Source: Heptranchias perlo (Eukaryota). From it: a stretch of DNA of 64,000 bases. The first letter of the stretch is position 1. Every line of letters starts with the position of its first letter. A program made the position numbers and the translations under genes. Location: assembly GCF_035084215.1 (NCBI RefSeq), contig NW_027139215.1, positions 62,001 through 126,000 of the forward strand, in the 5' to 3' direction. The notes beneath the pieces are model-generated. The model worked only from the letters and a program-made list of their open reading frames with translations. It was not told the origin of the DNA and searched no databases. Positions 1 to 26,803 of the stretch are shown one piece after another.

Positions 1-812
1 CCCGTTCACCGGGTCGGGCGTCCTGGGTGCCGGGGTGGGCGAGGCCGAAGAGGCCGGATTCGTCTGCCCCCGGCTCGACCTCTCCCAGGACCTGCTCGAC
101 CTGGTGGCGGGGTTTAATAAAAACATCTCACGGGCCGGGTCGGTCGGTGGCGACGTGGGTGGGGGGACCCCCTCCTCCCAGTATCTGGGCACGGAGCCGG
201 GGGAGGTGGGAGAACTGGAGTATACGTTCTCCCCCGTTTCCCCGGTTTGCCCCTATATCCGGGTGCCTGTTTTTCACCGCCCGGAGGATGGGGAGGGTCC
301 CCGCCCGGCGCCGCCCTCTGACCCAGAGCCCCCGGTAGAGCCCGGGGGGGGACTCCTCTGCCGACGATCCTGGGGGTGGGATCGTGGCGGAGGCGGGGCC
401 GGCCGGCGTGGCCGTCTCGTTCTCCGCGCTTTGTGCGGGGAGTGGGTCGGCCGCGGGCGACGATGATCCGGAGGAGGACGGGGACTCGGTGGTGGGCACT
501 GGGGAGGATTTGGAGTTCGCCACCAGTGAGGTGGTGGACGCCCTCGTGCCCGGCACCGAGTCTCCCCTCATCCCCGTTGAGGAACTCCTGGATTTTGTGT
601 CCGTTTGGAGCCATCGTCGCGATGGCGTCCGGCTGGCCCTCGACCGTTGGTCGGAGCCAGCGCAATTAATCTGCTCGGTCCGGGCCGCCGTCGCGTCCGT
701 GGCCGCGGAGGAGGGCGGCGGCAGGGTCGGGTTGCGCCGGCTCAGGTTTCTCCTCACCGGGCTCTTGAGCGAGTGGCGGTCGACTAGCGGCCCCGCTCCC
801 TCCGCGCATTAG
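1..812 (+). pseudogene. Tx1 ORF1 C-terminal part, +1 frameshift in a G run near 344-351
   Basis: ORFs 35..466 and 384..812 each match part of the intact ORF1 5802..7844; G8 here versus G7 in copy 3 (could be a homopolymer sequencing error). Confidence 0.85.
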
Positions 813-841
813 GTTTAAGTAGGTTGCGCTGTGCTCTTGCC

Positions 842-3800
842 ATGGAGATAACCATAGCCAGCCTCAACATCAACGGCGGCAGAGACGCCCGCCGTAGATT
901 TGACAAGTTCTCGGTCCTTCGGGACGGGAAGTATGCGGTGTGCTTTCTGCAGGAAACCCACACCGTTCCGGGAGACGAGGCCACGTGGATCCTGGAATGG
1001 GGAGGGGGGGTCTACTTGAGTCACCTCGCCAGCGTTTCGAGCGGGGTGGCCATCTTGTTGGCCCCGACTTTTCAGCCGGAGATCTTGGGGGTCAAGGAGC
1101 CGGTGCCGGGCCGCTTGCTCCACGTAGCCCTTCGCCACGGGGATGTGCCGCTTCACCTGGTGAACGTGTACGCCCCCTGGTCCGAGGGCGAGCAAGTGAG
1201 CTTCTTTGAAGAAGTGTCTACTTACCTAAACTCCGTCGACGCCGGCGAGTGCATTATCCTCGGGGGGGATTTTAACCGTACCCTCGAGGCGAGGGACCGC
1301 TCCGGTCCCGCGCGTGCCCGAACGGCGACGGAGAAGTTGAGGGACCTGGTCGGGTCCTTCGACTTGGTGGACGTCTGGCGGAATCTCCATCCCGACTCCG
1401 GCCAGTTCACCTTTGTGAGGGCCGGAGGGGGGAGCACCAGAATCGACCGCCTGTACGTTTCGCGGGCGTACGCCTCCTGCGTCCCGTCGGCCTCCATCCG
1501 GCCGGTGTCGTGCTCGGACCACCACCTGGTGTGGATGGAGCTCGCTCTGCTCCGCGCCCGGTCGGGGTCCGCGTACTGGCACTATAACAACCGGCTGCTG
1601 GAGGACGCGCGGTTCCGGGACTCGTTCCGTCTGTTCTGGAGCGACTGGAGAGGGAAGCGGGGAGGCTTCTCCTCCTTGAGGCTATGGTGGGACGTGGGCA
1701 AGGCTCACGTCCGCCTCTTCTGTCAAGAGTACGCGAGGGGGTCGACTAAGAGGCGGGAGTCCGAGGTCAGGCGGTTGGAGCAGGAGGTGCTTGGCCTGGA
1801 GTCCCGTCTCGGTCAGGCCGCCGAGGATCCGGCCCTGCGGCAGGTGTACGAGGAGAGGAAGGACGCTCTGAGGGACCTGCAACTGGTCGGGTCCCGAGGA
1901 GCGTACGTGAGGTCGCGGCTCCAGCTCCTGCGGGACCTGGACCGCGGCTCTCCCTTCTTCTACTCGCTGGAAAAGCGGCGGGGGGCTCGTAAGCAGCTCC
2001 TTACGCTGCTGGCCGACGACGGGTCCCTCGTCTCGGACCCGGAGGGAGTCAGGGCCCGGGCTCGATCTTTCTACGAGGCTCTGTTCTCTCCGGATCCGTC
2101 CAGCGAGGAGGCGCGCAGAGTTTTGTGGGAGGACTTGCCGAAGGTCGGCCCGGAGGACGCCGAGCGTCTGGACGCTCCGCTCAGTTTGGCGGAGCTGACC
2201 GGCGCCCTCCACCAGCTCTCCAGGGGCAAGTCCCCGGGGCTGGACGGGCTGACCGTGGAGTTCCTCAGGGCCTTCTGGGACGTCCTGGGGGGCGACTACG
2301 CGCGGGTCCTGGGGGAATGTCTGGCGACCGGGGAGATGCCCCTTTCGTGGCGCAGGGCGGTCGTGGTCCTGCTGCCTAAGAAGGGGGATCTCCGCAACCT
2401 TAAAAACTGGCGCCCGGTCTCCCTCCTCAGCACGGATTATAAGGTCTTCGCCAGGGCGATGTCTGCTCGCCTCGGCACCGTGCTGGACCACATGATCCAC
2501 CCCGACCAGTCCTACACGGTCCCGGGCCGGACGATCCACGATAACATCCACCTGGTCCGGGACCTGATCCACCACTCCCAGAGGGCTGGTCTGTCGGTCG
2601 CCTTCCTTTCCTTGGATCAGGAGAAGTCGTTCGACAGGGTGGATCACGAGTATCTATTCGGGACTCTGCGCGCTTTCGGATTCGGGTCGCATTTCGTCGC
2701 CCGGATCCGACTTCTGTACGCCGCCGCGGAGTGTCTGATTAAGGTTAACGGATCCTTGACGGCGCCCCTTCGCTTCGGGAGAGGAGTGCGTCAGGGGTGC
2801 CCCATGTCCGGCCAATTATATACCATCTGCGTAGAGCCTTTCCTTCACCTCTTGCGAAAGAGGCTGTCGGGACTGGCTCTGCTCGAGCCGGGCGTGGAGG
2901 TCGTCCTTTCGGCTTACGCCGACGACGTGCTCCTCATGGTCACCGATCCCCTTGACTTGCGGAGAATGCGCGAGTGCCAAGAGGTCTACTCTGCCGCGTC
3001 CTCCGCAAGAATCAACTGGGAGAAATGTTCCGGACTCCTGGTGGGTCAGTGGCGGGTGGACTCCATGCCGGAGGAGCTCAGGGCTTTCGCCTGGAGTACC
3101 ACGCACCTCCGGTACCTGGGAGTCTACCTCGGCCCTGCCGAGGAAGCCTGGCCGGCGAACTGGGTAGAGCTGGAGGCCAAAGTCGCCGCTCGCCTGGCGC
3201 GCTGGACAGGACTGCTCCGAGTGTTATCCTACAGGGGTCGAGTGCTGGTCATAAACCAGCTGGTGGCCGCCATGTTGTGGTACCGGTTGGTTCCTTTGAC
3301 CCCCCCCCCTGATTTTGTCGCCAAGATTCAGAGGAAGTTCGTCGACTTCTTCTGGGCCAAAGGGATGCACTGGGTCGCTGCCGCGGTCCTGAGTCTCCCG
3401 CTTAGGGAGGGCGGTCAGGGGCTGGTGTGCGTCCGCACCCAGGTGGCAACTTTCCGCCTTCGGATGCTGCAGCGATACCTGTACGCGGAGCGTCCTCTTA
3501 GATGGCGTGCGCTGGCGACGTATTTTTTCCGCCAGCTGCACGGCCTGAACTACGACACGCAGCTCCTGTTCGTCTCGCTGCTGGGCGGCCGCACGTCTTT
3601 GCGGGAGCTGCCTGTCTTTTACCAGGATCTGCTCAGGGTCTGGACCATGGTCGCCTCCAGCCGGAGCTCTCGCCCGTCGGGGGTAGCGGCCGTCGTGCAG
3701 GAGCCGCTGCTCGGGAATCCGTTCCTCCGCGATGTCGGCTTCAGCCGCTCGTGGCTGACGGAGCGGAGGGCTGTGGCCGGTCGGGTAACCAGAGTCAGGG

Positions 3801-4747
3801 ACGTCCTGGATGGCGGAGGGTCGGGTTGGCTCGAGCCGTGGGCGCTCGCCGCTCGCATGTCCTCGTGGCGTGCCGGGGACGCGGCCGCCGCCATCCAGGC
3901 GTTGAAATCGGCGCTCGGCCCTGACTCCACTCGGGGTGTGGAGGCGGCTCAGGCGTGCGGAGCCATCCCGTCCGACCTGACCCCCGTTCGGACGGAATTC
4001 CTCCTCGGCGCCAAACCCCGGAACCTCCCTCGGAGGGCCGCGCCTCACAACTTGAGCCGTCTCTCGGAAATTCCCTCCGTGCCGTTTCACACCGCGCGGA
4101 GGGATTTCCTGTACGGGCTGCTCCTGCACACCATCCACTTCCTCGCCCTCGTCTCTCGCCCGGACACGCCCTGGCGTACCATCCTGCCGTCCGGCGGAGA
4201 CGGGGGTCCCCAGTGGGAGGCTCTCTATACGGGGGTCCTCCCGTGTTACTTTGGGGATCTGGGGTGGAGAGTGTTGCACGGAGCAGTCCCGTGCAACAGG
4301 CGTTTACGCCATTTTACGGACACCCAGGCCGCTTGCATTTTCTGCGGCCTGGAGGAGTCCGTTTTTCATTTGTACACTGGGTGTGCGAGACTGCAGCCCC
4401 TGTTCCATTATTTGGAGGGGCTGCTCCTCAAGTTCTGGCTGCACTTCAGTCCCACGCTCCTGATCTTTGGCCGCCCGGTGAGGAGGGGGGCGGGCAGGTC
4501 GGTGGACGTCCTCGTGGGCCTGCTCCTGGGCCTGTCCAAGGTGGCTATCCACAGGTCCAGGATGCTCGCGGTCCGCGGGGGTGGGCGCTCGGCCTGTCTG
4601 CCTCTCTTTCGCGGGTTGCTCCGCGCCCGGGTGGCCCTGGAGATGGAGCACGCGGTGTCTGCCGGTACGCTTGAGGCTTTCCGCGACCGGTGGGCACCGC
4701 AGGGGCTGGAGTGCATCCTGAACGAGGATAATAAAATTTTGATTTGA
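842..4747 (+). CDS. Tx1 ORF2 polyprotein (APE endonuclease, reverse transcriptase, C-terminal Cys/His motif), intact, 1301 aa from ATG 842
   Basis: APE motifs SLNINGG, FLQETH, GDFN, SDH; RT motifs KSPGLDG, WRPVSLL, LDQEKSFD, GVRQGCP, YADD; C-terminal CIFC..ESVFHLYTGC. Confidence 0.95.
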   Translation: MEITIASLNINGGRDARRRFDKFSVLRDGKYAVCFLQETHTVPGDEATWILEWGGGVYLSHLASVSSGVAILLAPTFQPEILGVKEPVPGRLLHVALRHGDVPLHLVNVYAPWSEGEQVSFFEEVSTYLNSVDAGECIILGGDFNRTLEARDRSGPARARTATEKLRDLVGSFDLVDVWRNLHPDSGQFTFVRAGGGSTRIDRLYVSRAYASCVPSASIRPVSCSDHHLVWMELALLRARSGSAYWHYNNRLLEDARFRDSFRLFWSDWRGKRGGFSSLRLWWDVGKAHVRLFCQEYARGSTKRRESEVRRLEQEVLGLESRLGQAAEDPALRQVYEERKDALRDLQLVGSRGAYVRSRLQLLRDLDRGSPFFYSLEKRRGARKQLLTLLADDGSLVSDPEGVRARARSFYEALFSPDPSSEEARRVLWEDLPKVGPEDAERLDAPLSLAELTGALHQLSRGKSPGLDGLTVEFLRAFWDVLGGDYARVLGECLATGEMPLSWRRAVVVLLPKKGDLRNLKNWRPVSLLSTDYKVFARAMSARLGTVLDHMIHPDQSYTVPGRTIHDNIHLVRDLIHHSQRAGLSVAFLSLDQEKSFDRVDHEYLFGTLRAFGFGSHFVARIRLLYAAAECLIKVNGSLTAPLRFGRGVRQGCPMSGQLYTICVEPFLHLLRKRLSGLALLEPGVEVVLSAYADDVLLMVTDPLDLRRMRECQEVYSAASSARINWEKCSGLLVGQWRVDSMPEELRAFAWSTTHLRYLGVYLGPAEEAWPANWVELEAKVAARLARWTGLLRVLSYRGRVLVINQLVAAMLWYRLVPLTPPPDFVAKIQRKFVDFFWAKGMHWVAAAVLSLPLREGGQGLVCVRTQVATFRLRMLQRYLYAERPLRWRALATYFFRQLHGLNYDTQLLFVSLLGGRTSLRELPVFYQDLLRVWTMVASSRSSRPSGVAAVVQEPLLGNPFLRDVGFSRSWLTERRAVAGRVTRVRDVLDGGGSGWLEPWALAARMSSWRAGDAAAAIQALKSALGPDSTRGVEAAQACGAIPSDLTPVRTEFLLGAKPRNLPRRAAPHNLSRLSEIPSVPFHTARRDFLYGLLLHTIHFLALVSRPDTPWRTILPSGGDGGPQWEALYTGVLPCYFGDLGWRVLHGAVPCNRRLRHFTDTQAACIFCGLEESVFHLYTGCARLQPLFHYLEGLLLKFWLHFSPTLLIFGRPVRRGAGRSVDVLVGLLLGLSKVAIHRSRMLAVRGGGRSACLPLFRGLLRARVALEMEHAVSAGTLEAFRDRWAPQGLECILNEDNKILI

Positions 4748-4924
4748 ACTCTTGGTTTTGGTTTGTTTGGTTTTTAGTTGTTAAGCACGCCCCACACCCC
4801 CCCTTCTTATAAAAGGGGGGCCTAATTAGAGAAGAAAAAAGAAAGAGAAAAAAAAAAGAAAAAAAGAAAAAAAAAAAAAGAAAAAAAGAAAAAAAAAAAG
4901 TTGTGGAACTATTTTTTTCTGATC

Positions 4925-5101
4925 CAAGCTCTTGTATTTCTACTACTGGGACAGCCTGCATTTAAACCAGGAATGGACAGCACCAATGATGATTGACAAT
5001 CCCTGATAGCCAATCAGGAATCTTCCCTGAATCCAGGCACCAATTAACAAAGGACAGGGCTCTGGTGGAGAGATTGATATCCAGAGCCAATCAGAGCTTT
5101 G
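4925..5101 (-). promoter_or_regulatory. Inverted ferritin-promoter-like module at the Tx1 5' end (4 CCAAT boxes, TGATTGACA motif, eroded TATA)
   Basis: CCAAT at 4983, 5010, 5040, 5087; TGATTGACA 4990-4998; colinear blocks shared with ferritin promoters at 22003-22180 and 29445-29585. Confidence 0.65.
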
Positions 5102-5801
5102 CAATACAGACCAGCAAGGCCTTGGAGGTGTTTGTGGCTGGACTGCCACTGAGTGGAGTGGAGAGCAGAGAGAGCAGGCCCTTGCCTGGGTCCCTTGGGG
5201 AGAAGGAGAAGGAGAAGGAGAAAGAAGGAGAAACCACCATCAACAAGGAGGGAGGGAGAAGGAGAAAAAGAGCACCAACCAGTGGGAGGAAGAGGTGGTC
5301 GGTGCAGTGAGGTGTGTCGGCTGAAGGTAGGGGGAGGAAGAAGACTTCAGAGGACAGGGGTCCCCCCCAAGTGTCTGGCCCGGGACAGCTGGAGCTGCCT
5401 GGGTGAAGTTACTTTCTTTTTTAAATCTTTGGAGGACTGAGCCTAGGCAGCTCCAGCTGTCTAGGGGAAGACATCTCCTCCCCCTGCCCACCGGAAGACA
5501 GGCAGAAGAGGATCCACCTTTTAAGGTGCAACCGGCCCCTCTTCCACCCACTTCTGCAGCAGCCTACCCCTGCAGACTCCCTCCTTCCCATTCTGCCATC
5601 CATCCCTCCCACCTTCTCCTGCTCTCTGGGATATTCCCTTGCTCTCCGGGGTATTCTGGGAATATATAAAAACAACAAAGGGGCCCTCTCCCAACCAAGC
5701 ACTGGGATTCGGGGAGAGAGGTATCCTCAAGAATTCTTTTAAAAAAAGGCCAATTTCCATCCAAAGGCCTGAGACTTGGGGTGGGTGTGGCTCTTTAGGT
5801 C

Positions 5802-7844
5802 ATGGCTTCACCATCTTCGCCGGTGCCGGGACCCAGCAGGACGTATGCGGCGGTTACCTCGGGGGCCGCTCCTACAGTTCGTGCCGCTCCTGCTGGGCCG
5901 GCGCCTTTCCGCCTCATTACGAGGAAGCATGGGGTGAAGAGCTACGCCCACCCCAACATGACCATTGAGGCCTGCGTAAAGGCCATGGCCGAGGTTGTCG
6001 GCCCCTCGGCCATCGTCGCGGCCTCAAAAATGTACGGGAGGGCGGTGTTCTTCCTGAGGTCCGAGCGGGCGGTGTCCCTGGCCCTTAGTAAGGGGCTCAC
6101 GGTTGGCGGGACCTTCCTGCCGGTGGACCCGCTGGAGGCCACCGCGCAGCGAGTCATTTTATCTAACGTTCCGCCTTTCCTGTCGGACGAGCTCCTCCTC
6201 CCCCACCTACGTCAACTGGGGGAGGTGAGGTCGGGGGTAACGCCGCTGCCGCTCGGACTCAGGGAGAACAGCCTCCGGCATGTTTACTCCTTCCGTCGCC
6301 AGGCATTCGTCAAGCTGGCACGGGAGGAGGTTACGGAGGGGGGCTTTAACGCCCTCCACGAGGGGACCCCTTACCGCGTCTTTTGGACGGCAGAGGGTGG
6401 GCGGTGCCATGCCTGTAAGGAGGTGGGGCACCTGAAGAGGAACTGCCCTGCCTCTCAGGCCGCCAAAACAGCTACGGCGGCCGGGGCTGGCGCCGCCACC
6501 GCTCCTCCCCCCAACCCCGCCCCCGCGTCGGGAGAGTCAACTGCGCGGGTGGAGGTTGGCGTCGAGGCCTCCGCCAGGGGGGAGGAGGGGAACCCTCGCC
6601 AGAGAAAGGCGCGGAGAAAGAGGAAGAATTTAGAGGCTGGTCCCCGGGACAGAGAAGATCTGAGTCAGCCCGAGGCCGTGACCGCGGCCAGTCAACATCT
6701 CGCGGTCGCGACAGAGCCCGGGCTGGCGGGTGATCAGGAGGGAGCGGAGGCGGGGGTCCCAGCAGACATGGAGTTCCCCCTCCCTCCGCGACCCCCCGGG
6801 AAGAAAAAGAGGCGCCACTCCCCGGAAGCGAACGGGCTCCCTGCTAAGGGACGGCCCCCCGTGGAAGGGGAGTCGGTGCCGGTCGCGGATCCTGCGGCCC
6901 CGCCCGTGACATCCGAACAGCGGCGGGGGTCATCCACCTCTCGGGGGGAGGAGATCGTGCCCGTGCCTCCCGGGGGGGATGGAGAGACCCCGCCGATAGG
7001 GGGGGTCGCGGATCCGCATTTACCCGATACCACCCTGTTCACCGGGTCGGGCGTCCTGGGTGTCGGGGTGGGCGAGGCCGTTGCGGCCAAATTCGTCTGC
7101 CCCCGGCTCGACCTCTCCCAGGACCTGCTCGACCTGGTGGTGGGTTTTAACCAGAATATCTCACCGGCCGGGTCGGTCGGTGGCGACGTGGGTGGGGGGA
7201 CCCCCTCCTCTCAGTCTCTGGGCTCGGAGCCGGGGGAGGTGGGAGAACTGGAGTACACGTTCTCCCCGGTTTCCCCGGGTTCCCCTTATATCCGGGTGCC
7301 GGTTTTTCACCGCTCGGAGGCTGGGGAGGGTCCCCGCCCGGCGCCGCCCTCTGACCCGGACCCCCCGGTGGAGCCCGGGGAGGACTCCTCTGCCGACGAT
7401 CCTGGGGGTGGGATCGTGACAGAGGCGGGGCTGGCCGGCGCGGCCGTCTCGTTCTCCGCGCTTTGTGCGGGGAGCGGGTCGGCCGCGGGCGACGATGACC
7501 CGGAGGAGGACGGGGACTCGGTGGTGGGCACTGGGGAGGATTTGGAGTTCGCCGCCAGTGAGGTGGTGGACGCCCTCGTGCCCTGCAACGAGTCTCCCCT
7601 CATCCCCGTTGAGGAACTCCGGGATTTTGCGTCCGGTTGGAGCCGTCGTCGCGATGGCGTCCGGCTGGCCCTCGACCGTTGGTCGGAGCCGGCGCAGTTA
7701 ATCCGCTCGGTCCTGGCCGCCGTCGCGTCCGTGGCCGCAGAAGGGGACGACGGCGGGGTCGGGCTGCGTCGGCTCAGATCCCTCCTCACCGGGCTCTTGA
7801 GGGAGTGGCGGTCGACTAGCGGCCCCGCTCCCTCCACGCGTTAG
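5802..7844 (+). CDS. Tx1 ORF1 protein (nucleic-acid binding, CCHC zinc knuckle), intact, 680 aa
   Basis: CHACKEVGHLKRNC knuckle, RRM-like N-terminus, basic patches; lies directly upstream of ORF2. Confidence 0.9.
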   Translation: MASPSSPVPGPSRTYAAVTSGAAPTVRAAPAGPAPFRLITRKHGVKSYAHPNMTIEACVKAMAEVVGPSAIVAASKMYGRAVFFLRSERAVSLALSKGLTVGGTFLPVDPLEATAQRVILSNVPPFLSDELLLPHLRQLGEVRSGVTPLPLGLRENSLRHVYSFRRQAFVKLAREEVTEGGFNALHEGTPYRVFWTAEGGRCHACKEVGHLKRNCPASQAAKTATAAGAGAATAPPPNPAPASGESTARVEVGVEASARGEEGNPRQRKARRKRKNLEAGPRDREDLSQPEAVTAASQHLAVATEPGLAGDQEGAEAGVPADMEFPLPPRPPGKKKRRHSPEANGLPAKGRPPVEGESVPVADPAAPPVTSEQRRGSSTSRGEEIVPVPPGGDGETPPIGGVADPHLPDTTLFTGSGVLGVGVGEAVAAKFVCPRLDLSQDLLDLVVGFNQNISPAGSVGGDVGGGTPSSQSLGSEPGEVGELEYTFSPVSPGSPYIRVPVFHRSEAGEGPRPAPPSDPDPPVEPGEDSSADDPGGGIVTEAGLAGAAVSFSALCAGSGSAAGDDDPEEDGDSVVGTGEDLEFAASEVVDALVPCNESPLIPVEELRDFASGWSRRRDGVRLALDRWSEPAQLIRSVLAAVASVAAEGDDGGVGLRRLRSLLTGLLREWRSTSGPAPSTR

Positions 7845-7873
7845 GTTTAAGTAGGTTGCGCTGTGCTCTTGCC

Positions 7874-10800
7874 ATGGAGATAACCATAGCCAGCCTCAAC
7901 ATCAACGGCGGCAGAGACGCCCGCCGTAGATTTGACAAGTTCTCGGTCCTGCGGGACGGGAAGTATGCGGTGTGCTTTCTGCAGGAAACCCACACCGTTC
8001 CGGGAGACGAGGCCACGTGGATCCTGGAATGGGGAGGGGGGGTCTACTTGAGTCACCTCGCCAGCGTTTCGAGCGGGGTGGCCATCTTGTTGGCCCCGAC
8101 TTTTCAGCCGGAGATCTTGGGGGTCAAGGAGCCGGTGCCGGGCCGCTTGCTCCACGTAGCCCTTCGCCACGGGGACGTGCCGCTTCACCTGGTGAACGTG
8201 TACGCCCCCTGGTCCGAGGGCGAGCAAGTGAGCTTCTTTGAAGAAGTGTCCACTTACCTAAACTCCGTCGACGCCGGCGAGTGCATTATCCTCGGGGGGG
8301 ATTTTAACCGTACCCTCGAGGCGAGGGACCGCTCCGGTCCCGCGCGTGCCCGAACGGCGACGGAGAAGTTGAGGGACCTGGTCGGGTCCTTCGACTTGGT
8401 GGACGTCTGGCGGAATCTCCATCCCGACTCCGGCCAGTTCACCTTTGTGAGGGCTGCAGGAGGGAGCACCAGAATCGACCGCCTGTACGTTTCGCGGGCG
8501 TACGCCTCCTGCGTCCCGTCGGCCTCCATCCGGCCGGTGTCGTGCTCGGACCACCACCTGGTGTGGATGGAGCTCGCTCTGCTCCGCGCCCGGTCGGGGT
8601 CCGCGTACTGGCACTTTAACAACCGGCTGCTGGAGGACGCGCGGTTCCGGGACTCGTTCCGTCTGTTCTGGAGCGACTGGAGAGGGAAGCGGGGAGGCTT
8701 CTCCTCCTTGAGGCTATGGTGGGAGGTGGGCAAGGCTCACGTCCGCCTCTTCTGTCAAGAGTACGCGAGGGGGTCGACTAAGAGGCGGGAGTCCGAGGTC
8801 AGGCGGTTGGAGCAGGAGGTGCTTGGCCTGGAGTCCCGTCTCGGTCAGGCCGCCGAGGATCCGGCCCTGCGGCAGGTGTACGAAGAGAGGAAGGACGCTC
8901 TGAGGGACCTGCAACTGGTCGGGTCCCGAGGAGCGTACGTGAGGTCGCGGCTCCAGCTCCTGCGGGACCTGGACCGCGGCTCTCCCTTCTTCTACTCGCT
9001 GGAAAAGCGGCGGGGGGCTCGTAAGCAGCTCCTTACGCTGCTGGCCGACGACGGGTCCCTCGTCTCGGACCCGGAGGGAGTCAGGGCCCGGGCTCGATCT
9101 TTCTACGAGGCTCTGTTCTCTCCGGATCCGTCCAGCGAGGAGGCGCGCAGAGTTTTGTGGGAGGACTTGCCGAAGGTCGGCCCGGAGGACGCCGAGCGTC
9201 TGGACGCTCCGCTCAGTTTGGCGGAGCTGACCGGCGCCCTCCACCCCAGCTCTCCAGGGGCAAGTCCCCGGGGCTGGACGGGCTGACCGTGGAGTTCCTC
9301 AGGGCCTTCTGGGACGTCCTGGGGGGCGACTACGCGCGGGTCCTGGGGGAATGTCTGGCGACCGGGGAGATGCCCCTTTCGTGGCGCAGGGCGGTCGTGG
9401 TCCTGCTGCCTAAGAAGGGGGATCTCCGCAACCTTAAAAACTGGCGCCCGGTCTCCCTCCTCAGCACGGATTATAAGGTCTTCGCCAGGGCGATGTCTGC
9501 TCGCCTCGGCACCGTGCTGGACCACATGATCCACCCCGACCAGTCCTACACGGTCCCGGGCCGGAAGATCCACGATAACATCCACCTGGTCCGGGACCTG
9601 ATCCACCACTCCCAGAGGGCTGGTCTGTCGGTCGCCTTCCTTTCCTTAGATCAGGAGAAGGCGTTCGACAGGGTGGATCACGAGTATCTATTCAGGACTC
9701 TGCGCGCTTTCGGATTCGGGTCGCATTTCGTCGCCCGGATCCGACTTCTGTACGCCGCCGCGGAGTGTCTGATTAAGGTTAACGGATCCTTGACGGCGCC
9801 CCTTCGCTTCGGGAGAGGAGTGCGTCAGGGGTGCCCCATGTCCGGCCAATTATATACCATCTGCGTAGAGCCTTTCCTGCACCTCTTGCGAAAGAGGCTG
9901 TCGGGACTGGCTCTGCGCGAGCCGGACGTGGAGGTCGTCCTTTCGGCTTACGCCGACGACGTGCTCCTCATGGTCACCGATCCCCTTGACTTGCGGAGAA
10001 TGCGCGAGTGCCAAGAGGTCTACTCTGCCGCGTCCTCCGCAAGAATCAACTGGGAGAAATGTTCCGGACTCCTGGTGGGTCAGTGGCGGGTGGACTCCAT
10101 GCCGGAGGAGCTCAGGGCTTTCGCCTGGAGTACCACGCACCTCCGGTACCTGGGAGTCTACCTCGGCCCTGTCGAGGAAGCCTGGCCGGCGAACTGGGTA
10201 GAGCTGGAGGCCAAAGTCACCGCTCGCCTGGCGCGCTGGACAGGACTGCTCCGAGTGTTATCCTACAGGGGTCGAGTGCTGGTCATAAACCAGCTGGTGG
10301 CCGCCATGTTGTGGTACCGGTTGGTTCCTTTGACCCCCCCCCCTGATTTTGTCGCCAAGATTCAGAGGAAGTTCGTCGACTTCTTCTGGGCCAAAGGGAT
10401 GCACTGGGTCGCTGCCGCGGTCCTGAGTCTCCCGCTTAGGGAGGGCGGTCAGGGGCTGGTGTGCGTCCGCACCCAGGTGGCAACTTTCCGCCTTCGGATG
10501 CTGCAGCGATACCTGTACGTTGAGCGTCCTCTTAGATGGCGTGCGCTGGCGACGTATTTTTTCCGCCAGCTGCACGGCCTGAACTACGACACGCAGCTCC
10601 TGTTCGTCTCGCTGCTGGGCGGCCGCACGTCTTTGCAGGAGCTGCCTGTCTTGTACCAGGATCTGCTCAGGGTCTGGACCATGGTTGCCTCCAGCCGGAG
10701 CTCTCGCCCGTCGGGGGTAGCGGCCGTCCTGCAGGAGCCGCTGCTCGGGAATCCGTTCCTCCGCGATGTCGGCTTCAGCCGCTCGTGGCTGACGGAGCGG

Positions 10801-11781
10801 AGGGCTGTGGCCGGTCGGGTAACCAGAGTCAGGGACGTCCTGGATGGCGGAGGGTCGGGTTGGCTCGAGCCGTGGGCGCTCGCCGCTCGCATGTCCTCGT
10901 GGCGTGCCGGGGACGCGGCCGCCGCCATCCAGGCGTTGAAATCGGCGCTCGGCCCTGACTCCACTCGGGGTGTGGAGGCGGCTCAGGCGTGCGGAGCCAT
11001 CCCGTCCGACCTGACCCCCGTTCGGACGGAATTCCTCCTCGGCGCCAAACCCCGGAACCTCCCTCGGAGGGCCGCGCCTCACAACTTGAGCCGTCTCTCG
11101 GAAATTCCCTCCGTGCCGTTTCACACCGCGCGGAGGGATATCCTGTACGGGCTGCTCCTGCACACCATCCACTTCCTCGCCCTCGTCTCTCGCCCGGACA
11201 CGCCCTGGCGTGCCATCCTGCCGTCCGGCGGAGACGGGGGTCCCCAGTGGGAGGCTCTCTATACGGGGGTCCTCCCGTGTTACTTTGGGGATCTGGGGTG
11301 GAGGGTGTTGCACGGAGCAGTCGCGTGCAACCGGCGGTTACGCCATTTTACGGACACCCAGGCCGCTTGCATTTTCTGCGGCCTGGAGGAGTCCGTTTTT
11401 CATTTGTACACTGGGTGTGCGAGACTGCAGCCCCTGTTCCATTATTTGGAGGGGCTGCTCCTCAAGTTCTGGCTGCACTTCAGTCCCACGCTCCTGATCT
11501 TTGGCCGCCCGGTGAGGAGGGGGGCGGGCAGGTCGGTGGACGTCCTCGTGGGCCTGCTCCTGGGCCTGTCCAAGGTGGCTATCCACAGGTCCAGGATGCT
11601 CGCGGTCCGCGGGGGTGGGCGCTCGGCCTGTCTGCCTCTCTTTCGCGGGTTGCTCCGCGCCCGGGTGGCCCTGGAGATGGAGCACGCGGTGTCTGCCGGT
11701 ACGCTTGAGGCTTTCCGCGACCGGTGGGCACCGCAGGGGCTGGAGTGCATCCTGAACGAGGATAATAAAATTTTGATTTGA
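7874..11781 (+). pseudogene. Tx1 ORF2 of copy 2, frameshifted (+2 C near 9244-9247)
   Basis: ORFs 7856..9286 and 9157..11781 together equal copy 1 ORF2; CCACCCCAGC versus CCACCAGC. Confidence 0.9.
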
Positions 11782-11912
11782 ACTCTTGGTTTTGGTTTGT
11801 TTGGTTTTTAGTTGTTAAGCACACCCCACACCCCCCCTTCTTATAAAAGGGGGGCCTAATCAGAGAAGATATAAAAAAAAAAAAAAAAATTCTGGAACTA
11901 TTTTCTTCTGAT

Positions 11913-12090
11913 CCAAGCTCTTGTATTGAGACGACTGGGACAGCCTGCATTGAAACCAGGAATGGACAGCACCAATGATGATTGACAATCCCTGATAGCC
12001 AATCAGGAATCTTCCATGAATCCAGGCACCAATTAACAAAGGACAGGGCTCTGGGGGAGAGATTGATATCCAGAGCCAATCAGAGCTTTG
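11913..12090 (-). promoter_or_regulatory. Second copy of the inverted ferritin-promoter-like module
   Basis: Near-identical to 4925-5101; TATA-equivalent further eroded. Confidence 0.6.
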
Positions 12091-12807
12091 CAATACAGAC
12101 CAGCAAGGCCTTGGAGGTGTTTGTGGCTGGACTGCCACTGAGTGGAGTGGAGAGCAGAGAGAGCAGGCCCTTGCCTGGGTCCCTTGGGGAGAAGGAGAAA
12201 GAGAAGGAGAAAGAAGGAGAAACCACCATCAACAAGGAGGGAGGGAGAAGGAGGGAGAAGGAGAAAAAGAGCACCAACCAGTGGGAGGAAGAGGTGGTCG
12301 GTGCAGTGAGGTGTGTCGGCTGAAGGTAGGGGGAGGAAGAAGACTTCAGAGGACAGGGGTCCCCCCCAAGTGTCTGGCCCAGGACAGCTGGAGCTGCCTG
12401 GGTGAAGATACTTTCCTTTTCAAATCTTTGGAGGACTGAGCCGAGGCAGCTCCAGCTGTCTAGGGGAAGACATCTCCTCCCCCTGCCCACTGGAAGACAG
12501 ACAGAAGAAGATCCACCTTTTAAGGTGCAACCCCGCCCCTCTTCCACCCACTTCTGCAGCAGCCCACCCCTGCAGACTCCCTCCTTCCCTTTCTGCCATC
12601 CATCCCTCCCACCTTCTCCTGCTCTCTGGGATATTCCCTTGCTCTCCGGGGTGTTCTTGGGGAATTTAAAAACCAACAAAGGGGCCCTCTCCCATCCAAG
12701 CACTGGGATTCGGGGAGAGAGGTTTTCCTCAAGGTTTTCATTTAAAAAAAAGAGGCCAATTTCAATCCAAAGGCCTGAGACTTGGGGTGGGTGTGGCTCT
12801 TTAGGTC

Positions 12808-14850
12808 ATGGCTTCACCATCTTCGCCGGTGCCGGGACCCAGCAGGACGTATGCGGCGGTTACCTCGGGGGCCGCTCCTACAGTTCGTGCCGCTCCTGCT
12901 GGGCCGGCGCCTTTCCGCCTCATTACGAGGAAGCATGGGGTGAAGAGCTAGGCCCACCCCAACATGACCATTGAGGCCTGCGTAAAGGCCATGGCCGAGG
13001 TTGTCGGCCCCTCGGCCATCGTCGCGGCCTCGAAAATGTACGGGAGGGCGGTGTTCTTCCTGAGGTCCGAGCGGGCGGTGTCCCTGGCCCTTAGTAAGGG
13101 GCTCACGGTTGGCGGGACCTTCCTGCCGGTGGACCCGCTGGAGGCCACCGCGCAGCGAGTCATTTTATCCAACGTCCCGCCTTTCCTGTCGGACGAGCTC
13201 CTCCTCCCCCACCTACGTCAACTGGGGGAGGTGAGGTCGGGGGTAACGCCGCTGCCGCTCGGACTCAGGGAGAACAGCCTCCGGCATGTTTACTCCTTCC
13301 GTCGCCAGGCATTCGTCAAGCTGGCACGGGAGGAGGTTACGGAGGGGGGCTTTAACGCCCTCCACGAGGGGACCCCTTACCGCGTCTTTTGGACGGCAGA
13401 GGGTGGGCGGTGCCATGCCTGTAAGGAGGTGGGGCACCTGAAGAGGAACTGCCCTGCCTCTCAGGCCGCCAAAACAGCTACGGCGGCCGGGGCTGGCGCC
13501 GCCACCGCTCCTCCCCCCAACCCCGCCCCCGCGTCGGGAGAGTCAACTGCGCGGGTGGAGGTTGGCGTCGAGGCCTCCGCCAGGGGGGTGGAGGGGAACC
13601 CTCGCCAGAGAAAGGCGCGGAGAAAGAGAAAGAATCTAGAGGCTGGTCCCCGGGACAGAGAAGATCTGAGTCAGCCCGAGGCCGTGACCGCGGCCAGTCA
13701 ACATCTCGCGGTCGCGACAGAGCCCGGGCTGGCGGGTGATCAGGAGGGAGCGGAGGTGGGGGTCCCAGCAGACATGGAGTTCCCCCTCCCTCCGCGACCC
13801 CCCGGGAAGAAAAAGAGGCGCCACTCCCCGGAAGCGAACGGGCTCCCTGCTAAGGGACGGCCCCCCGTGGAAGGGGAGTCGGTGCCGGTCGCGGATCCTG
13901 CGGCCCCGCCCGTGACATCCGAACAGCGGCGGGGGTCATCCACCTCTCGGGGGGAGGAGATCGTGCCCGTGCCTCCCGGGGGGGATGGAGAGACCCCGCC
14001 GATAGGGGGGGTCGCGGATCCGCATTTACCCGACACTACCCTGTTCACCGGGTCGGGCGTCCTGGGTGCCGGGGTGGGCGAGGCCGTTGCGGCCAAATTC
14101 GTCTGCCCCCGGCTCGACCTCTCCCAGGACCTGCTCGAACTGGTGGTGGGTTTTAATCAAAATATCTCGCCGGCCGGGTCGGTCGGTGGCGACGTGGGTG
14201 GGGGGACCCCCTCCTCTCAGTCTCTGGGCTCGGAGCCGGGGGAGGTGGGAGAACTTGAGTACACGTTCTCCCCGGTTTCCCCGGGTTCCCCTTATGTCCG
14301 GGTGCCGGTTTTTCACCGCTCTGAGGCTGGGGAGGGTCCCCGCCCGGCGCCGCCCTCTGACCCGGACCCCCCGGTGGAGCCCGGGGGGGACTCCTCTGCC
14401 GACGATCCTGGGGGTGGGATCGTGGCGGAGGCGGGGCCGGCCGGCGCGGCCGTCTCGTTCTCCGCGCTTTGTGCGGGGAGCGGGTCGGCCGCGGGCGACG
14501 ATGACCTGGAGGAGGACGGGGACTCGGTGGTGGGCACTGGGGAGGATTTGGAGTTCGCCGCCAGTGAGGTGGTGGACGCCCTCGTGCCCTGCACCGAGTC
14601 TCCCCTCATCCCCGTTGAGGAACTCTGGGATTTTGCGTCCGGTTGGAGCCGTCGTCGCGATGGCGTCCGGCTGGCCCTCGACCGTTGGTCGGAGCCGGCG
14701 CAGTTAATCCGCTCGGTCCGGGCCGCCGTCGCGTCCGTGGCCGCGGAGGAGGACGGCGGCGGGGTCGGGCTGCGTCGGCTCAGATCCCTCCTCACCGGGC
14801 TCTTGAGCGAGTGGCGGTCGACTAGCGGCCCCGCTCCCTCCGCGCGTTAG
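12808..14850 (+). pseudogene. Tx1 ORF1 of copy 3 with a premature stop (TAC>TAG at 12949-12951)
   Basis: Direct comparison with 5802..7844; the remaining ORF 12964..14850 starts at an internal Met. Confidence 0.9.
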
Positions 14851-14879
14851 GTTTAAGTAGGTTGCGCTGTGCTCTTGCC

Positions 14880-17800
14880 ATGGAGATAACCATAGCCAGC
14901 CTCAACATCAACGGCGGCAGAGACGCCCGCCGTAGATTTGACAAGTTCTCGGTCCTGCGGGACGGGAAGTATGCGGTGTGCTTTCTGCAGGAAACCCACA
15001 CCGTTCCGGGAGACGAGGCCACGTGGATCCTGGAATGGGGAGGGGGGGTCTACTTGAGTCACCTCGCCAGCGTTTCGAGCGGGGTGGCCATCTTGTTGGC
15101 CCCGACTTTTCAGCCGGAGATCTTGGGGGTCAAGGAGCCGGTGCCGGGCCGCTTGCTCCACGTAGCCCTTCGCCACGGGGATGTGCCGCTTCACCTGGTG
15201 AACGTGTACGCCCCCTGGTCCGAGGGCGAGCAAGTGAGCTTCTTTGAAGAAGTGTCCACTTACCTAAACTCCGTCGACGCCGGCGAGTGCATTATCCTCG
15301 GGGGGGATTTTAACCGTACCCTCGAGGCGAGGGACCGCTCCGGTCCCGCGCGTGCCCGAACGGCGACGGAGAAGTTGAGGGACCTGGTCGGGTCCTTCGA
15401 CTTGGTGGACGTCTGGCGGAATCTCCATCCCGACTCCGGCCAGTTCACCTTTGTGAGGGCCGGAGGGGGGAGCACCAGAATCGACCGCCTGTACGTTTCG
15501 CGGGCGTACGCCTCCTGCGTCCCGTCGGCCTCCATCCGGCCGGTGTCGTGCTCGGACCACCACCTGGTGTGGATGGAGCTCGCTCTGCTCCGCGCCCGGT
15601 CGGTGTCCGCGTACTGGCACTTTAACAACCGGCTGCTGGAGGACGCGCGGTTCCGGGACTCGTTCCGTCTGTTCTGGAGCGACTGGAGAGGGAAGCGGGG
15701 AGGCTTCTCCTCCTTGAGGCTATGGTGGGACGTGGGCAAGGCTCACGTCCGCCTCTTCTGTCAAGAGTACGCGAGGGGGTCGACTAAGAGGCGGGAGTCC
15801 GAGGTCAGGCGGTTGGAGCAGGAGGTGCTTGGCCTGGAGTCCCGTCTCGGTCAGGCCGCCGAGGATCCGGCCCTGCGGCAGGTGTACGAGGAGAGGAAGG
15901 ACGCTCTGAGGGACCTGCAACTGGTCGGGTCCCGAGGAGCGTACGTGAGGTCGCGGCTCCAGCTCCTGCGGGACCTGGACCGCGGCTCTCCCTTCTTCTA
16001 CTCGCTGGAAAAGCGGCGGGGGGCTCGTAAGCAGCTCCTTACGCTGCTGGCCGACGACGGGTCCCTCGTCTCGGACCCGGAGGGAGTCAGGGCTCGGGCT
16101 CGATCTTTCTACGAGGCTCTGTTCTCTCCGGATCCGTCCAGCGAGGAGGCGCGCAGAGTTTTGTGGGAGGACTTGCCGAAGGTCGGCCCGGAGGACGCCG
16201 AGCGTCTGGACGCTCCGCTCAGTTTGGCGGAGCTGACCGGCGCCCTCCACCAGCTCTCCAGGGGCAAGTCCCCGGGGCTGGACGGGCTGACCGTGGAGTT
16301 CCTCAGGGCCTTCTGGGACGTCCTGGGGGGCGACTACGCGCGGGTCCTGGGGGAATGTCTGGCGACCGGGGAGATGCCCCTTTCGTGGCGCAGGGCGGTC
16401 GTGGTCCTGCTGCCTAAGAAGGGGGATCTCCGCAACCTTAAAAACTGGCGCCCGGTCTCCCTCCTCAGCACGGATTATAAGGTCTTCGCCAGGGCGATGT
16501 CTGCTCGCCTCGGCACCGTGCTGGACCACATGATCCACCCCGACCAGTCCTACACGGTCCCGGGCCGGAAGATCCACGATAACATCCACCTGGTCCGGGA
16601 CCTGATCCACCATTCCCAGAGGGCTGGTCTGTCGGTCGCCTTCCTTTCCTTGGATCAGGAGAAGGCGTTCGACAGGGTGGATCACGAGTATCTATTCGGG
16701 ACTCTGCGCGCTTTCGGGTTCGGGTCGCATTTCGTCGCCCGGATCCGACTTCTGTACGCCGCCGCGGAGTGTCTGATTAAGGTTAACGGATCCTTGACGG
16801 CGCCCCTTCGCTTCGGGAGAGGAGTGCGTCAGGGGTGCCCCAAGTCCGGCCAATTATATACCATCTGCGTAGAGCCTTTCCTGCACCTCTTGCGAAAGAG
16901 GCTGTCGGGACTGGCTCTGCTCGAGCCGGGCGTGGAGGTCGTCCTTTCGGCTTACGCCGACGACGTGCTCCTCATGGTCACCGATCCCCTTGACTTGCGG
17001 AGAATGCGCGAGTGCCAAGAGGTCTACTCTGCCGCGTCCTCCGCAAGGATCAACTGGGAGAAATGTTCCGGACTCCTGGTGGGTCAGTGGCGGGTGGACT
17101 CCCTGCCGGAGGAGGTCAGGCCTTTCGCCTGGAGTACCACGCACCTCCGGTACCTGGGAGTCTACCTCGGCCCTGCCGAGGAAGCCTGGCCGGCGAACTG
17201 GGAAGAGCTGGAGGCCAAAGTCACCGCTCGCCTGGCGCGCTGGACAGGACTGCTCCGAGTGTTATCCTACAGGGGTCGAGTGCTGGTCATAAACCAGCTG
17301 GTGGCAGCCATGTTGTGGTACAGATTGGTCACTTTGACCCCCCCCCTGATTTTGTCGCCAAGATTCAGAGGAAGTTCGTCGACTTCTTCTGGGCCAAAGG
17401 GATACACTGGGTCGCTGCCGCGGTCCTGAGTCTCCCGCTTCGGGAGGGCGGTCAGGGGCTGGTGTGCGTCCGCACCCAGATGGCAACTTTCCGCCTTCGG
17501 ACGCTGCGGCGATACCTGTACGTTGAGCGTCCTCTTAGATGGCGTGCGCTGGCGACGTACTTTTTCCGCCAGCTGCACGGCCTGAACTACGACACGCAGC
17601 TCCTGTTCGTCTCGCTGGTGGGCGGCCGCATGTCTTTGCAGGAGCTGCCTGTCTTTTACCAGGATCTGCTCAGGGTCTGGAACATGGTCGCCTCCGGTCG
17701 GAGCTATCGCCCGTCAGGGGTAGCGGCCGTCCTGCAGGAGCCGCTGCTCGGGAATCCGTTCCTCCGCGATATCGGCTTCGGCCGCTCGCGGCTGTCGGTG

Positions 17801-18784
17801 CGGAGGGCCGTGGCCGGTCGGGTGACCAGAGTCAGGGACGTCCTGGATGGCGGAGGGTCGGGTTGGCTCGAGCCGTGGGCGCTTGCCGCACGGATGTCCT
17901 CGTGGCGTGCCGGGGACGCGGCCGCCGCCATCCGGGCGTTGAAATCGGCGCTCGGCCCTGACTCCACTCGGGATGTGGAGGCGGCTCAAGCGTGCGGAGC
18001 CATCCCGTCCGACCTGACCCCCGTTCGGACGGAGTTCCTCATCGGCGCCGGGCCCCAAAACCTCCCTCGGAGGGCCGCGCCTCACAACTTGAGCCGTCTC
18101 TCGGAAATTCCCTCCGTGCCGTTTCACACCGCGCGGAGGGATTTCCTGTACGGGCTGCTCCTGCACACTCTCCACTTCCTCGCCCTCGTCTCTCGCCCGG
18201 ACACGCCCTGGCGTACCATCCTGCCGTCCGGCGGAGACAGGGGTCCCCAGTGGGGGGCTCTCTACTCAGGGATCCTCCCGTGTTCCATCGGGGATCTGGG
18301 GAGGAGAGTGTTGCACGGAGCAGTGGCGTGCAACAGGCGTTTACGCCATTTTACGGACTCCCAGGCCGCCTGCAATTTCTGCGGCCTGGAGGAGTCCGTG
18401 TTTCATTTGTTCACGGGGTGTGGGAGACTGCAGCCCCTGTTTGATTATTTGGAGGGGCTGCTCCTCAGGTTCTGGCTGCACTTCAGTCCCACGCTCCTGA
18501 TCTTTGGCCGCCCGGTGAGGAGGGGAGCGGGCAGGTCGGTGGACGTCCTCGTGGGCCTGCTCCTGGGCCTGTCCAAGGTGGCCATCCACAGGTCCAGGTT
18601 GCGTGCGGCCGGTGGGGGCGGTCGCTCGGACTGTCTGCCTCTCTTCCGCGGGATGCTCCGCGCCCGGGTGGCCCTGGAGATGGAGCACGCGGTGTCTGCC
18701 GGTACGCTTGACGCTTTCCGCGACCGGTGGGCACCGCAGGGGCTGGAGTGCATCCTGAACGGGGAAAATAAAATTTTAATTTGA
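14880..18784 (+). pseudogene. Tx1 ORF2 of copy 3, -1 frameshift in a C run at ~17338-17346
   Basis: C9 versus C10 in copy 1; ORFs 14862..17429 and 17012..18784. Confidence 0.88.
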
Positions 18785-18959
18785 TACCTGGTTTCGTTTT
18801 ATTTGGTTTTTAGTATTTAAGCACACCCTACACCCCCCCTTCTTATAAAAGGGGGGGCCTAAGAACACAAAAAAAAACAAAAAAGAATTTAAAAAAAACA
18901 CAAAAAAAAAGGTGCTGGTTGGTGGGTAAAGTGAAAAAGAAAAAAAATATGCCCGTTTC

Positions 18960-19541: not shown

Positions 19542-19554
19542 AATTCAATTAACT

Positions 19555-19995
19555 GTGATGCTGAGACAATATTCAAAGCAATCAAGTAGCCTTGAGTGAA
19601 TTTGCAAACCAACCATTGGACAGAGAAATGGAATTTCCATCCCATGGATGGTGGGAATCGCCCCCAGTTCTAATATAGAGAATGGGTGTGTCTGAGGATT
19701 GGCAGCATGGGGGCATCAACTGGGTAAAGCATTGTGGGATGTGTCATTTTTAGTTTTGATTCTCATGAAATGTTGTTTGGTAAAATTCAGGATATTCAGC
19801 GAGAATGAGAGGGAGTGAAGATTACTGAATGCAATGTCACCCACACAAACATCTCCATTTGTGTCAGCTGTGGCTCAGTGGTAGCACTCTCACCTCAGAG
19901 TCAGAAGGTTGTGGGTTCAAGTCCCACTCCAGGGACTGGAGCACAAAGTCTAGACTGATACTTCAGTGCAACACTGAGGGAGTGCTGCACTGTCA
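19555..19995. repeat. Inverted duplicate of ~34242-34667 (unique DNA plus SINE head)
   Basis: Reverse complement aligns nearly base for base. Confidence 0.9.
19862..19995 (+). mobile_element. tRNA-derived SINE head (DeuSINE/SacSINE1-like), truncated
   Basis: A box TGGCTCAGTGG, B box GGTTCAAGTCC; matches the longer copy at 33880-34357. Confidence 0.8.
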
Positions 19996-19999
19996 GATA

Positions 20000-21704: not shown

Positions 21705-21765
21705 TCTAACTGTCTAAGAAGGTATTTTAACTAGCTGAACCAGGCTAACGTCTTCCCAAACTCTT

Positions 21766-22002
21766 TTTTTTTTCTTTTTTTTCTTTTTCCTATTAGGCCC
21801 CCCTTTTATAAGAAGGGGGGGTGTGGGGTGTGCTTAAATACTAAAAACCCAAACAAACCAAAACCAAGTGTTCAAATTAAAACTTTATTATCCTCGTCCA
21901 GGATGCACTCCAGCCCCTGCGGTGCCCACCGGCCGCGGAAAGCCTCGAGCGTACCGGCAGACACCGCGTGCTCCATCTCCAGGGCCACCCGGGCGCAGAG
22001 CA
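21766..22002 (-). mobile_element. 5'-truncated Tx1 insertion with 13-bp TSD TTCCCAAACTCTT (21753-21765 / 22003-22015)
   Basis: ORF2 end, 3' UTR, hairpin and poly(A) on the minus strand; exact direct repeat on both sides. Confidence 0.92.
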
Positions 22003-22180
22003 TTCCCAAACTCTTCTATTTATATGTCTGGGGACAGCCTGCCTGTAATACAAGGCGTGGCATTCCCGATGATGAGTAAAAACTCACACTAGCCATTCAG
22101 AGCTCGACGCCCACTGAGGACACCAATCAAGAAAGAGGCGTAGTCGAGATTGTATTTAAGGCCAATCAGAACATTTTTTT
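22003..22180 (-). promoter_or_regulatory. Promoter of the ferritin pseudogene (TATAAATA 22024-22017, CCAAT boxes)
   Basis: TATA box at the expected distance once the Tx1 insert is removed; CCAATCA at ~22123 and ~22162. Confidence 0.7.
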
Positions 22181-22214
22181 TTCAATTAAGTAGATTTGTT
22201 TTGAATCAGGTTGA

Positions 22215-22335
22215 CTTTTTTTGTATGTTTCGATCCCCTTTTATGAGATTGAGGGAGGGAGGTTCAGGATGTAACTTTATTTTTTTTTTTAAATCCAAAA
22301 ACTAAATGATAACAGAGTCAAATAATAATTATAAT
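22215..22335 (-). mobile_element. Old degenerate Tx1 3' terminus
   Basis: Minus strand reads ...ATTATTTGACTCTG...CATAAAAGGGG...A-rich, similar to 18960-19112. Confidence 0.55.
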
Positions 22336-22358
22336 TTTTTTTTTTATGGGCAGTCAGC

Positions 22359-23491: not shown

Positions 23492-23550
23492 TTTTTTTTT
23501 GGTGTTTTTAGGCCCCCCCCCCCACTTTTTTCAGGGGGAGGGGTTAGGGT
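23492..23550 (-). mobile_element. Tx1 3' hairpin/poly(A) remnant upstream of ferritin gene 1
   Basis: T-run-GGTGTTTTTAGGCCCCC...GGGGTTAGGGT matches 22359-22408. Confidence 0.6.

Positions 23551-23739: not shown

Positions 23740-26803
<3,064 letters not shown>

Follow-up and report, generated by a model that had tools for sequence, protein, structure and literature searches.

The window, by which we mean the whole 64,000-nucleotide stretch of shark DNA that we analyzed, begins with a tandem array (1-18910) in which a non-LTR retrotransposon of ~7 kb is repeated head to tail in three copies. Beyond the array lie a ferritin pseudogene, two ferritin genes, and a ZP3-like gene. Copy 1 (1-4899, plus strand) is clipped by the window edge and ends in an A-tail (4835-4899); its ORF2 (842-4747) is open over 1301 codons and specifies an APE endonuclease and a reverse transcriptase. 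Copy 2 (4900-11889, plus strand) has an open ORF1 (5802-7844) and a 2-bp frameshift in ORF2 near 9244, and copy 3 (11890-18910, plus strand) carries a stop at codon 48 of ORF1 and a 1-bp frameshift in ORF2. ORF2 matched the Pfam families RVT_1 and Exo_endo_phos and was identical to the Xenopus laevis Tx1 149 kDa protein (P0010) at 652 of 1299 residues (50%) over its full length. On these domains and this identity, we assign the array element to the Tx1 clade. ORF1 had no Pfam match but 19 relatives at 35-58%, in sturgeon and turtles among others. The marks of target-primed insertion (A-tail, 5' truncation, and target-site duplication) are all present in this Tx1 family.

The 5' leader of the element (5102-5801, plus strand) has no sense-strand ATG in either copy. 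Over the ~700 nt from 5102, 5.9 and 5.1 ATGs were expected, and only 1 and 4 of 2000 shuffles were as free of them. We take this ATG-free leader to be the mark of an old 5' UTR; it begins where the homology to ferritin promoters, described below, ends. A long imperfect inverted repeat occupies ~5206-5624, with a 32-nt core at 5372-5403 and 5442-5473, and the folding of 4900-5810 beat that of 20 of 20 shuffles (z = -6.5). A pattern scan picked up a donor-like site at 5327; we considered an intron here and claim none.

The ferritin pseudogene (19995-21704, minus strand) has a stop at codon 7 and several frameshifts, and shares its introns with ferritin-2 at 70-74% identity. Both ferritin genes have open exons. 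Ferritin-1 (23740-26810) and ferritin-2 (29647-32197) are 93-98% identical in their exons and cannot be aligned in their introns, a pattern that either strong constraint or exon-level gene conversion could produce. An Rfam scan of 21500-30000 yielded 11 matches (E up to 10), with no iron-responsive element among them; the top match was an inverted pair of Tx1 fragments (F and M, below) that mimics a microRNA hairpin. The ZP3-like egg-coat gene (37022-39873, plus strand) has open exon frames. In exon 1 it shares 91% identity with a shark ZP3-like protein, and 58 of the 59 exon 1 matches carried shark or ray names, which identifies the host as a shark. From ZP3 alone, we infer that these loci are expressed in oocytes. 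The window also holds a CpG-island-like stretch free of Tx1 insertions (42500-43250), a minisatellite (55645-56229; 54-bp unit, 10.8 copies, 93% matches), and another LINE-like element, recognized by eye from its translation, with a 968-codon open frame (46650-49556) and related fragments at 50-54 kb. A 405-bp segment occurs twice in inverted orientation at 94% identity (19554-19958 and 34263-34667), each time near a minus-strand Tx1 piece.

All four promoters have been hit by Tx1 insertions other than those of the array. The pseudogene promoter (22007-22175, minus strand) is hit at both edges. Just past its TATA lies insertion D (21753-22015, minus strand), a 5'-truncated Tx1 in gene sense with a 13-bp duplication (21753-21765 / 22003-22015). 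On the other side, insertion E (22176-22340, minus strand), an old Tx1-like 3' UTR in gene sense that we recognized by eye and nhmmer did not match, abuts the distal CCAAT box with its A-tail. Fragments F (minus) and M (plus), head-to-head Tx1 3' pieces (22358-23011), separate the pseudogene promoter from that of ferritin-1 (23583-23670, plus strand). Upstream of the latter, insertion G (23489-23556, minus strand), again identified by eye, is a ~50-nt Tx1 3' end with a 10-bp duplication (23489-23498 / 23547-23556). This duplication is weaker than it appears, being mostly A (7 of 10 bases; seven As occur at 416 of 127,920 positions). Upstream of the ferritin-2 promoter (29424-29582, plus strand) is insertion H (29127-29358, minus strand), a 5'-truncated Tx1 with a 32-nt tag, a second A-run, and a 7-bp duplication (29127-29133 / 29352-29358). 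One copy of the duplication stands at the truncation point (29352) and the other at the end of the second A-run (29127); of 127,920 window positions, 175 have this 7-mer no more than 3 nt away. At ZP3, nhmmer detected a second head-to-head pair (34790-36977), formed by fragments I (minus, to 36648) and J (plus, 36663-36977). The tail of J passes directly into the ZP3 leader with no ZP3 promoter module between them. The ZP3 promoter appears to have been deleted at the I/J pair, although the ZP3 exon frames are open. Target-site duplications were thus found for three of the six truncated insertions examined (D, G, and H), and none was found at the inner junctions of F, I, and J or for the array copies.

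How strongly do these insertions favor promoters? Of 12 non-array Tx1 fragments (10 found by nhmmer and 2, E and G, by eye), 9 have one terminus no more than 1 kb upstream of an estimated start of the four ferritin and ZP3 loci, compared with 0 of 26 other repeats. The clustering gives a Fisher p of 1e-6, or 0.009 against the 6 repeats before 40 kb, and 7 of 10 fragments remain clustered without E and G; these p-values overstate the effect, since the intervals were chosen post hoc, the starts are estimates, and the fragments are not independent. Within the window, no Tx1 fragment lies past 36977. The ten 3' flanks have only an A-run in common: two start directly with TCTGA, several have it nearby, and they share no target. 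A fixed target sequence or repeat, such as defines Tx1L, Keno, Kibi, Koshi, and Tx1-Mar, was not found in these flanks, and the insertion preference is therefore regional.

The 3' end of the element carries a C/G hairpin (4797-4822 in copy 1, plus strand) that contains TATAAAAG (4808). Eight of the nine TATAAAAG sites in the window belong to Tx1 3' ends, namely the eight younger ones, and the motif is missing from the older ends E, G, and N. It lies 33-92 nt ahead of whatever sequence follows, and 92 and 48 nt ahead of the next array copy. This motif may be part of an RNA stem-loop or a polyadenylation signal alone, instead of a promoter TATA. Copy 3 is followed by a tag (18911-18947, plus strand) of which 24 nt repeat the beginning of the ZP3 leader (36978-37001) without a mismatch, and then by a second A-run. 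Copy 3 and fragment J are sisters at their 3' ends (support 84/87) and have the ZP3-leader tag in common, which points to a source copy at a ZP3 promoter; the tag is probably a 3' transduction from that copy. Short tags of 12-32 nt with a second A-run occur on four Tx1 tails (18911-18947, 22345-22357, 29134-29171, and 34790-34821), which suggests that short 3' transductions or re-priming are frequent. On fragment I, the tag resembles both the fragment's own flank and that of insertion H. At 4887-4920, the first 20 nt past the A-tail fold back onto the tail (-7.9 kcal/mol at the copy 1/2 junction versus -1.7 at copy 2/3), possibly a snap-back scar.

Between the A-tail of one array copy and the leader of the next lies the sequence that concerns us most. 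An earlier note on this DNA had proposed that, read as the reverse complement, 4925-5101 is homologous to the promoters of ferritin-2 and the pseudogene. This proved correct. In local alignment, the reverse complement of 4925-5101 (copy 1 of the module, minus strand) reached a score of 92 with the promoter of ferritin-2 (z = 15.8) and 95 with that of the pseudogene (z = 21.6); copy 2 of the module (11913-12090, minus strand) scored 84 and 87. None of 1000 dinucleotide shuffles reached these scores in any of the four element-promoter pairs (z 14-22 overall), and the opposite orientation scored 19-24, which is background. With the module as sole query against the whole window, nhmmer recovered 22008-22175 (E = 9.5e-11) and 29425-29573 (E = 9.2e-10), and reached only E = 0.46 at ferritin-1. 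Identity between module and promoters is 59-63%. The sequence blocks quoted in the earlier note are present, as is the exact 12-mer shared by 4948 and 22031; only the start of the ferritin-2 match, placed there at 29445, has to be moved to near 29424.

Module copy 1 contains four CCAAT boxes (4983, 5010, 5040, and 5087), a decamer-like site (4990), and a broken TATA (4935-4942). Perhaps a common set of motifs was responsible for the alignment? We masked the CCAAT, decamer, and TATA motifs and aligned the sequences segment by segment; the similarity persisted in all four pairs (z 4.8-5.6, 0 of 2000 shuffles). In a stricter masked local alignment, the pseudogene promoter held (0-1 of 2000 shuffles), ferritin-2 was weaker (8-33 of 2000), and ferritin-1 was lost; the ferritin-2 decamer was masked on the element side only in this local test and on both sides in the segment-wise one. 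We conclude that the homology reflects common descent and not a shared motif grammar. The ferritin-1 promoter, which has one CCAAT box and a TATA, is a partial and weaker homologue: 3 and 26 of 1000 shuffles matched it unmasked, and 14 of 2000 in the segment-wise masked test. The decamer was said to be conserved, and this holds in part: 9 of its 10 bases are kept at 4990 and all of them in ferritin-2, together with an intact TATA there, but it is lost in the pseudogene and ferritin-1 promoters. Lying within ~20 bp of a CCAAT box (4990 and 5010), it makes this a candidate TALE-DECA/NF-Y site by its motifs. The TATA is indeed broken in both copies of the element, by different substitutions in each.

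That 4925-5101 forms the 5' end of the element we can only infer, because both copies lie inside one tandem array. A 25-nt head (4900-4924, plus strand) stands between the upstream A-tail and the module; the junction is equal within 1 nt in both copies, and the head occurs nowhere else within the window. We rejected the head as a duplication between tandem copies: 2-3 of ~24 positions differ, so it is not a fresh target-site duplication, and it is absent after copy 3. The module was also rejected as an arm of the leader inverted repeat (270 of 300 shuffles score equally; there is a weak same-strand similarity, reached by 7 of 300 shuffles) and as 3' read-through cargo, there being no A-run after it and no other 3' end that carries it.

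Two origins had been suggested for this homology: that the element captured a host promoter backwards, or that the ferritin promoters descend from an outward-facing Tx1 promoter. Our data favor capture and give the second no support. The distal end of the module coincides with the junction of insertion E at the pseudogene promoter, and its TATA-side end falls ~3 nt from the end of the D duplication. The concentration of Tx1 fragments at these promoters, the start of the ATG-free leader at the edge of the homology, and the presence of a separate TATAAAAG in the 3' hairpin of the element argue the same way. With the ferritin state as outgroup, the TATA was kept in the genes and lost in both element copies by different substitutions; 3 of the 9 module differences fall in the core of the TATA, and both lineages contribute to them (p = 0.002; counted as events, 0.02). 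Descent of the ferritin promoters from an ancient outward promoter of the element is, by our estimate, very improbable. It can appeal to the near-equal distances among element and ferritin modules (56-66%), and to a tree without supported nesting of the element inside the ferritins. In the five-row promoter tree, direction is unsupported and the element, ferritin-2, and the pseudogene form an open fork, with quartet counts (6:3:2) slightly for the two ferritins grouped apart from the element. Composition is uninformative on direction because the whole leader, and not the module alone, is CpG-poor. An old donation of which no trace of the element remains would also be compatible with a single window. 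But the TATA is decayed in the element and intact in the genes. Homology also extends to all three ferritin promoters, even to that of ferritin-1 with its unalignable introns. Human H-ferritin has also been linked to NF-Y, judging by a title in the reference list of PMC7760355.

The main argument offered for donation had been the divergent Tx1 remnants just upstream of the ferritin genes, read as internally deleted elements. Such remnants do lie upstream of ferritin-2 and ferritin-1, but the Tx1 pieces adjacent to the pseudogene point towards the gene. Moreover, the remnants are not deletion products: each of G and H is bounded by a duplication of its own, placed precisely where its 5' truncation falls, which makes them separate 5'-truncated insertions beside a promoter that already existed. 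When the module was taken as the 5' end of the remnants instead, no junction duplication was found (the best candidate, of 6 nt, missed the junctions). Nor does Tx1 account for the 73 and 37 bp that separate module from remnant, where 33 of 200 and 200 of 200 shuffles score equally. We therefore rejected a domesticated Tx1 promoter in the ferritin genes, since the promoter lies outside the duplications and the DNA in between does not come from Tx1.

Does the module belong to the mobile unit? The array copies share the module and its left junction (4900/11890). The only two 5' ends in the window both belong to this array, and a full-length copy elsewhere in the window was not seen, which counts against mobility of the module. 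Between copies 2 and 3, 61 of 135 coding changes are synonymous versus 26% expected (p = 2e-6), a bias that persists in the segments where they are most alike (13 of 23, p = 0.002). CpG positions are not over-represented among the changes (31 of 138, p = 0.22), and divergence varies by segment from 0.4 to 7.4%. With purifying selection, no CpG decay, and patchy divergence, these copies look like the products of separate active lineages that replicated under selection, not like a neutral duplicate. Neutral change could explain the differences between copies 1 and 2 in the 3' part, of which 5 of 14 are synonymous (p = 0.30). Among the differences between the module copies (4901-5101 versus 11891-12090), 8 of 9 are transversions, versus 54 of 138 in the ORFs (p = 0.004).

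These observations bear on an alternative that we consider possible but somewhat unlikely, in which the module stands outside the mobile unit: a host ferritin-type promoter would remain between two Tx1 insertions, and the combination of promoter plus Tx1 would have been multiplied as DNA, by unequal crossover and gene conversion, with progeny that lack the module. Several features fit. The ATG-free leader begins only at 5102, and the module, with 3-4 sense ATGs (6-7-codon uORFs) versus none in the leader, has not been purged of them, which suggests that the translated mRNA starts downstream of the module and would lose it on retrotransposition. (The module is poor in antisense ATGs, a state reached by 8 and 33 of 2000 shuffles.) Copy 2 is a mosaic, copy-3-like in ORF1 and copy-1-like at its 3' end, as a single unequal crossover would leave it; 5102-5380 differs at 1 of 279 sites between copies; and host promoters in the window are hit at both edges. 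Neutral duplication, however, predicts too little divergence. At the rate of 14 changes in 1677 seen in the 3' part of copies 1 and 2, the module should differ at 1.7 positions and differs at 9, the distal leader shows 31 against 3.5 expected, and the 3' half of ORF1 shows 24 against 7.2; the module excess becomes marginal once the TATA cluster is removed (p = 0.02). Private changes in the EN-RT core are synonymous at 11 of 21 sites (p = 0.007), several conversion tracts would be required, one of them from another module-bearing donor, and no target-site duplication ties 5102 to any 3' flank. Even if multiplied as DNA, the module may serve the downstream copy as a promoter, through divergent transcription that starts at ~5110-5200, and by its position the CCAAT cluster is apparently placed to drive the element whether or not it belongs to the mobile unit. 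The least probable of the readings we considered makes the module a passenger, captured once and now functionless, its TATA changes due to chance. The TATA clustering does rest on three substitutions, but the two copies agree at every one of the four CCAAT boxes and at the decamer, their nine differences (of 200 columns) falling elsewhere, which with n = 2 is a weak argument.

We return to capture as the preferred reading, to which we assign a probability of roughly 0.55: the module would be a promoter of the host ferritin family, picked up backwards by a promoter-seeking Tx1 lineage ahead of the older 5' end of the element (~5102). It would now be carried along as the element moves. The first step can be seen in the window, where the Tx1 family has inserted repeatedly at both edges of ferritin and ZP3 promoters and in both orientations. 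A full-length copy would then have landed antisense just past the distal CCAAT box, which would leave an inverted promoter as its 5' flank. A transcript initiated on the far side of the TATA could have copied this flank into progeny, a 5' transduction. The likely source of such a transcript would be another Tx1 3' end, with TATAAAAG in its hairpin 33-92 nt before the next sequence; the host TATA is an alternative. Once in place, the CCAAT boxes and decamer would activate sense transcription of the element. CCAAT/NF-Y sites act in either orientation. CCAAT boxes usually lie upstream of the transcription start, which counts against the proposed arrangement. The outward TATA would fire antisense into the upstream copy, and its two independent losses may reflect selection against such firing. 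In arrays, the result could be a split promoter, with the TATA supplied by the tail of the upstream copy and the activator sites by the head of the downstream copy.

A broader scheme, which is speculative and which we think rather unlikely as a whole, would have a retrotransposon tethered to the NF-Y/TATA promoters of multicopy oocyte genes, using them as landing site and power source. A replacement TATA from the 3' hairpin would repair the host gene, and the backward capture of one target promoter would have created a split, self-renewing array promoter.

The origin of new LINE-type 5' promoters is seldom traceable. Here, the proposed donor family and the recipient lie within 25 kb, and the ends of the presumed capture match insertion points of the element, so that the route of capture is testable. 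The Tx1 targets named in the texts consulted are small-RNA genes, microsatellites, telomeric repeats, and DNA transposons; a Tx1 family that prefers Pol II promoters of protein genes, if real, would extend the clade to a new class of target. Such a family would also act on the multicopy ferritin and egg-coat genes of sharks, as here, where one ferritin promoter is interrupted and the ZP3 promoter is apparently gone. Among the titles and abstract openings we searched, a set that lies outside most subscription papers and Repbase, we found no report of Tx1 at protein-gene promoters, of shark Tx1 targets, or of ferritin-promoter capture; this lends weak support to novelty. Acquisition of target-derived 5' heads is known in Tx1, and what would be new is the protein-gene Pol II promoter as both target and donor. 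PMC3747384 and PMC9341512 provide general context in the portions available.

The element resembles Tx1L of Xenopus laevis in its two-ORF endonuclease/reverse-transcriptase anatomy and its non-random insertion, a comparison made by ORF2 and not by 5' DNA. The target of the Xenopus element is the DNA transposon Tx1D, according to the available text of PMC4494074, whereas the shark insertions cluster at protein-gene promoters. The spacing of decamer and CCAAT box recalls the TALE (Pbx/Prep) DECA and NF-Y pairing at zebrafish blastula-stage regulatory sites, where both factors are maternally deposited (PMC6023610, available part). That part of the source does not describe the pairing at oocyte promoters or retrotransposons and, unlike the sites it covers, the element decamer is imperfect and is lost in two of three ferritin promoters.

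Retroelements are known to acquire host or novel 5' sequence. SVA took transcribed sequence downstream of the MAST2 promoter by 5' transduction, and mammalian L1 recruits new 5' UTRs (PMC4494074 and PMC5872511, as excerpted). The accessible part of PMC5872511 describes L1 promoter turnover as mammal-specific, not seen in lizard, frog, or fish L1, and names no donor for the recruited 5' UTRs; the shark donor family, by contrast, can be identified, and the piece is inverted. Drosophila HeT-A/TAHRE offers a parallel for the array: a tandem promoter, shown experimentally (a review, PMC5537684, in its available text), in which, as could occur here, an upstream 3' end and the next 5' end form a promoter together in a head-to-tail arrangement. 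Those elements are telomeric and of an unrelated clade, and the split promoter proposed here is suggested by the TATA motif in the 3' hairpin alone.

The closest precedent we know comes from crocodilian Tx1-Mar and the Tx1-mobilized SINEU-2B (Kojima 2015, PMC4494074, in the text available). Within one target, Tx1-Mar uses two insertion regions that have no sequence similarity, and it enters them in opposite orientations; some Tx1 families have host-derived 5' heads, those of Tx1-Mar being pieces of U1 and U2 snRNA; and the 5' extension of SINEU-2B is an inverted piece of the target. Transcription from the flank was also proposed. Insertion in both orientations and an inverted piece of target at the 5' end would thus be common to the crocodilian and shark systems. 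They differ in that Tx1-Mar targets Mariner and carries snRNA heads, whereas the head of the shark element would be the Pol II promoter of a protein-coding gene.
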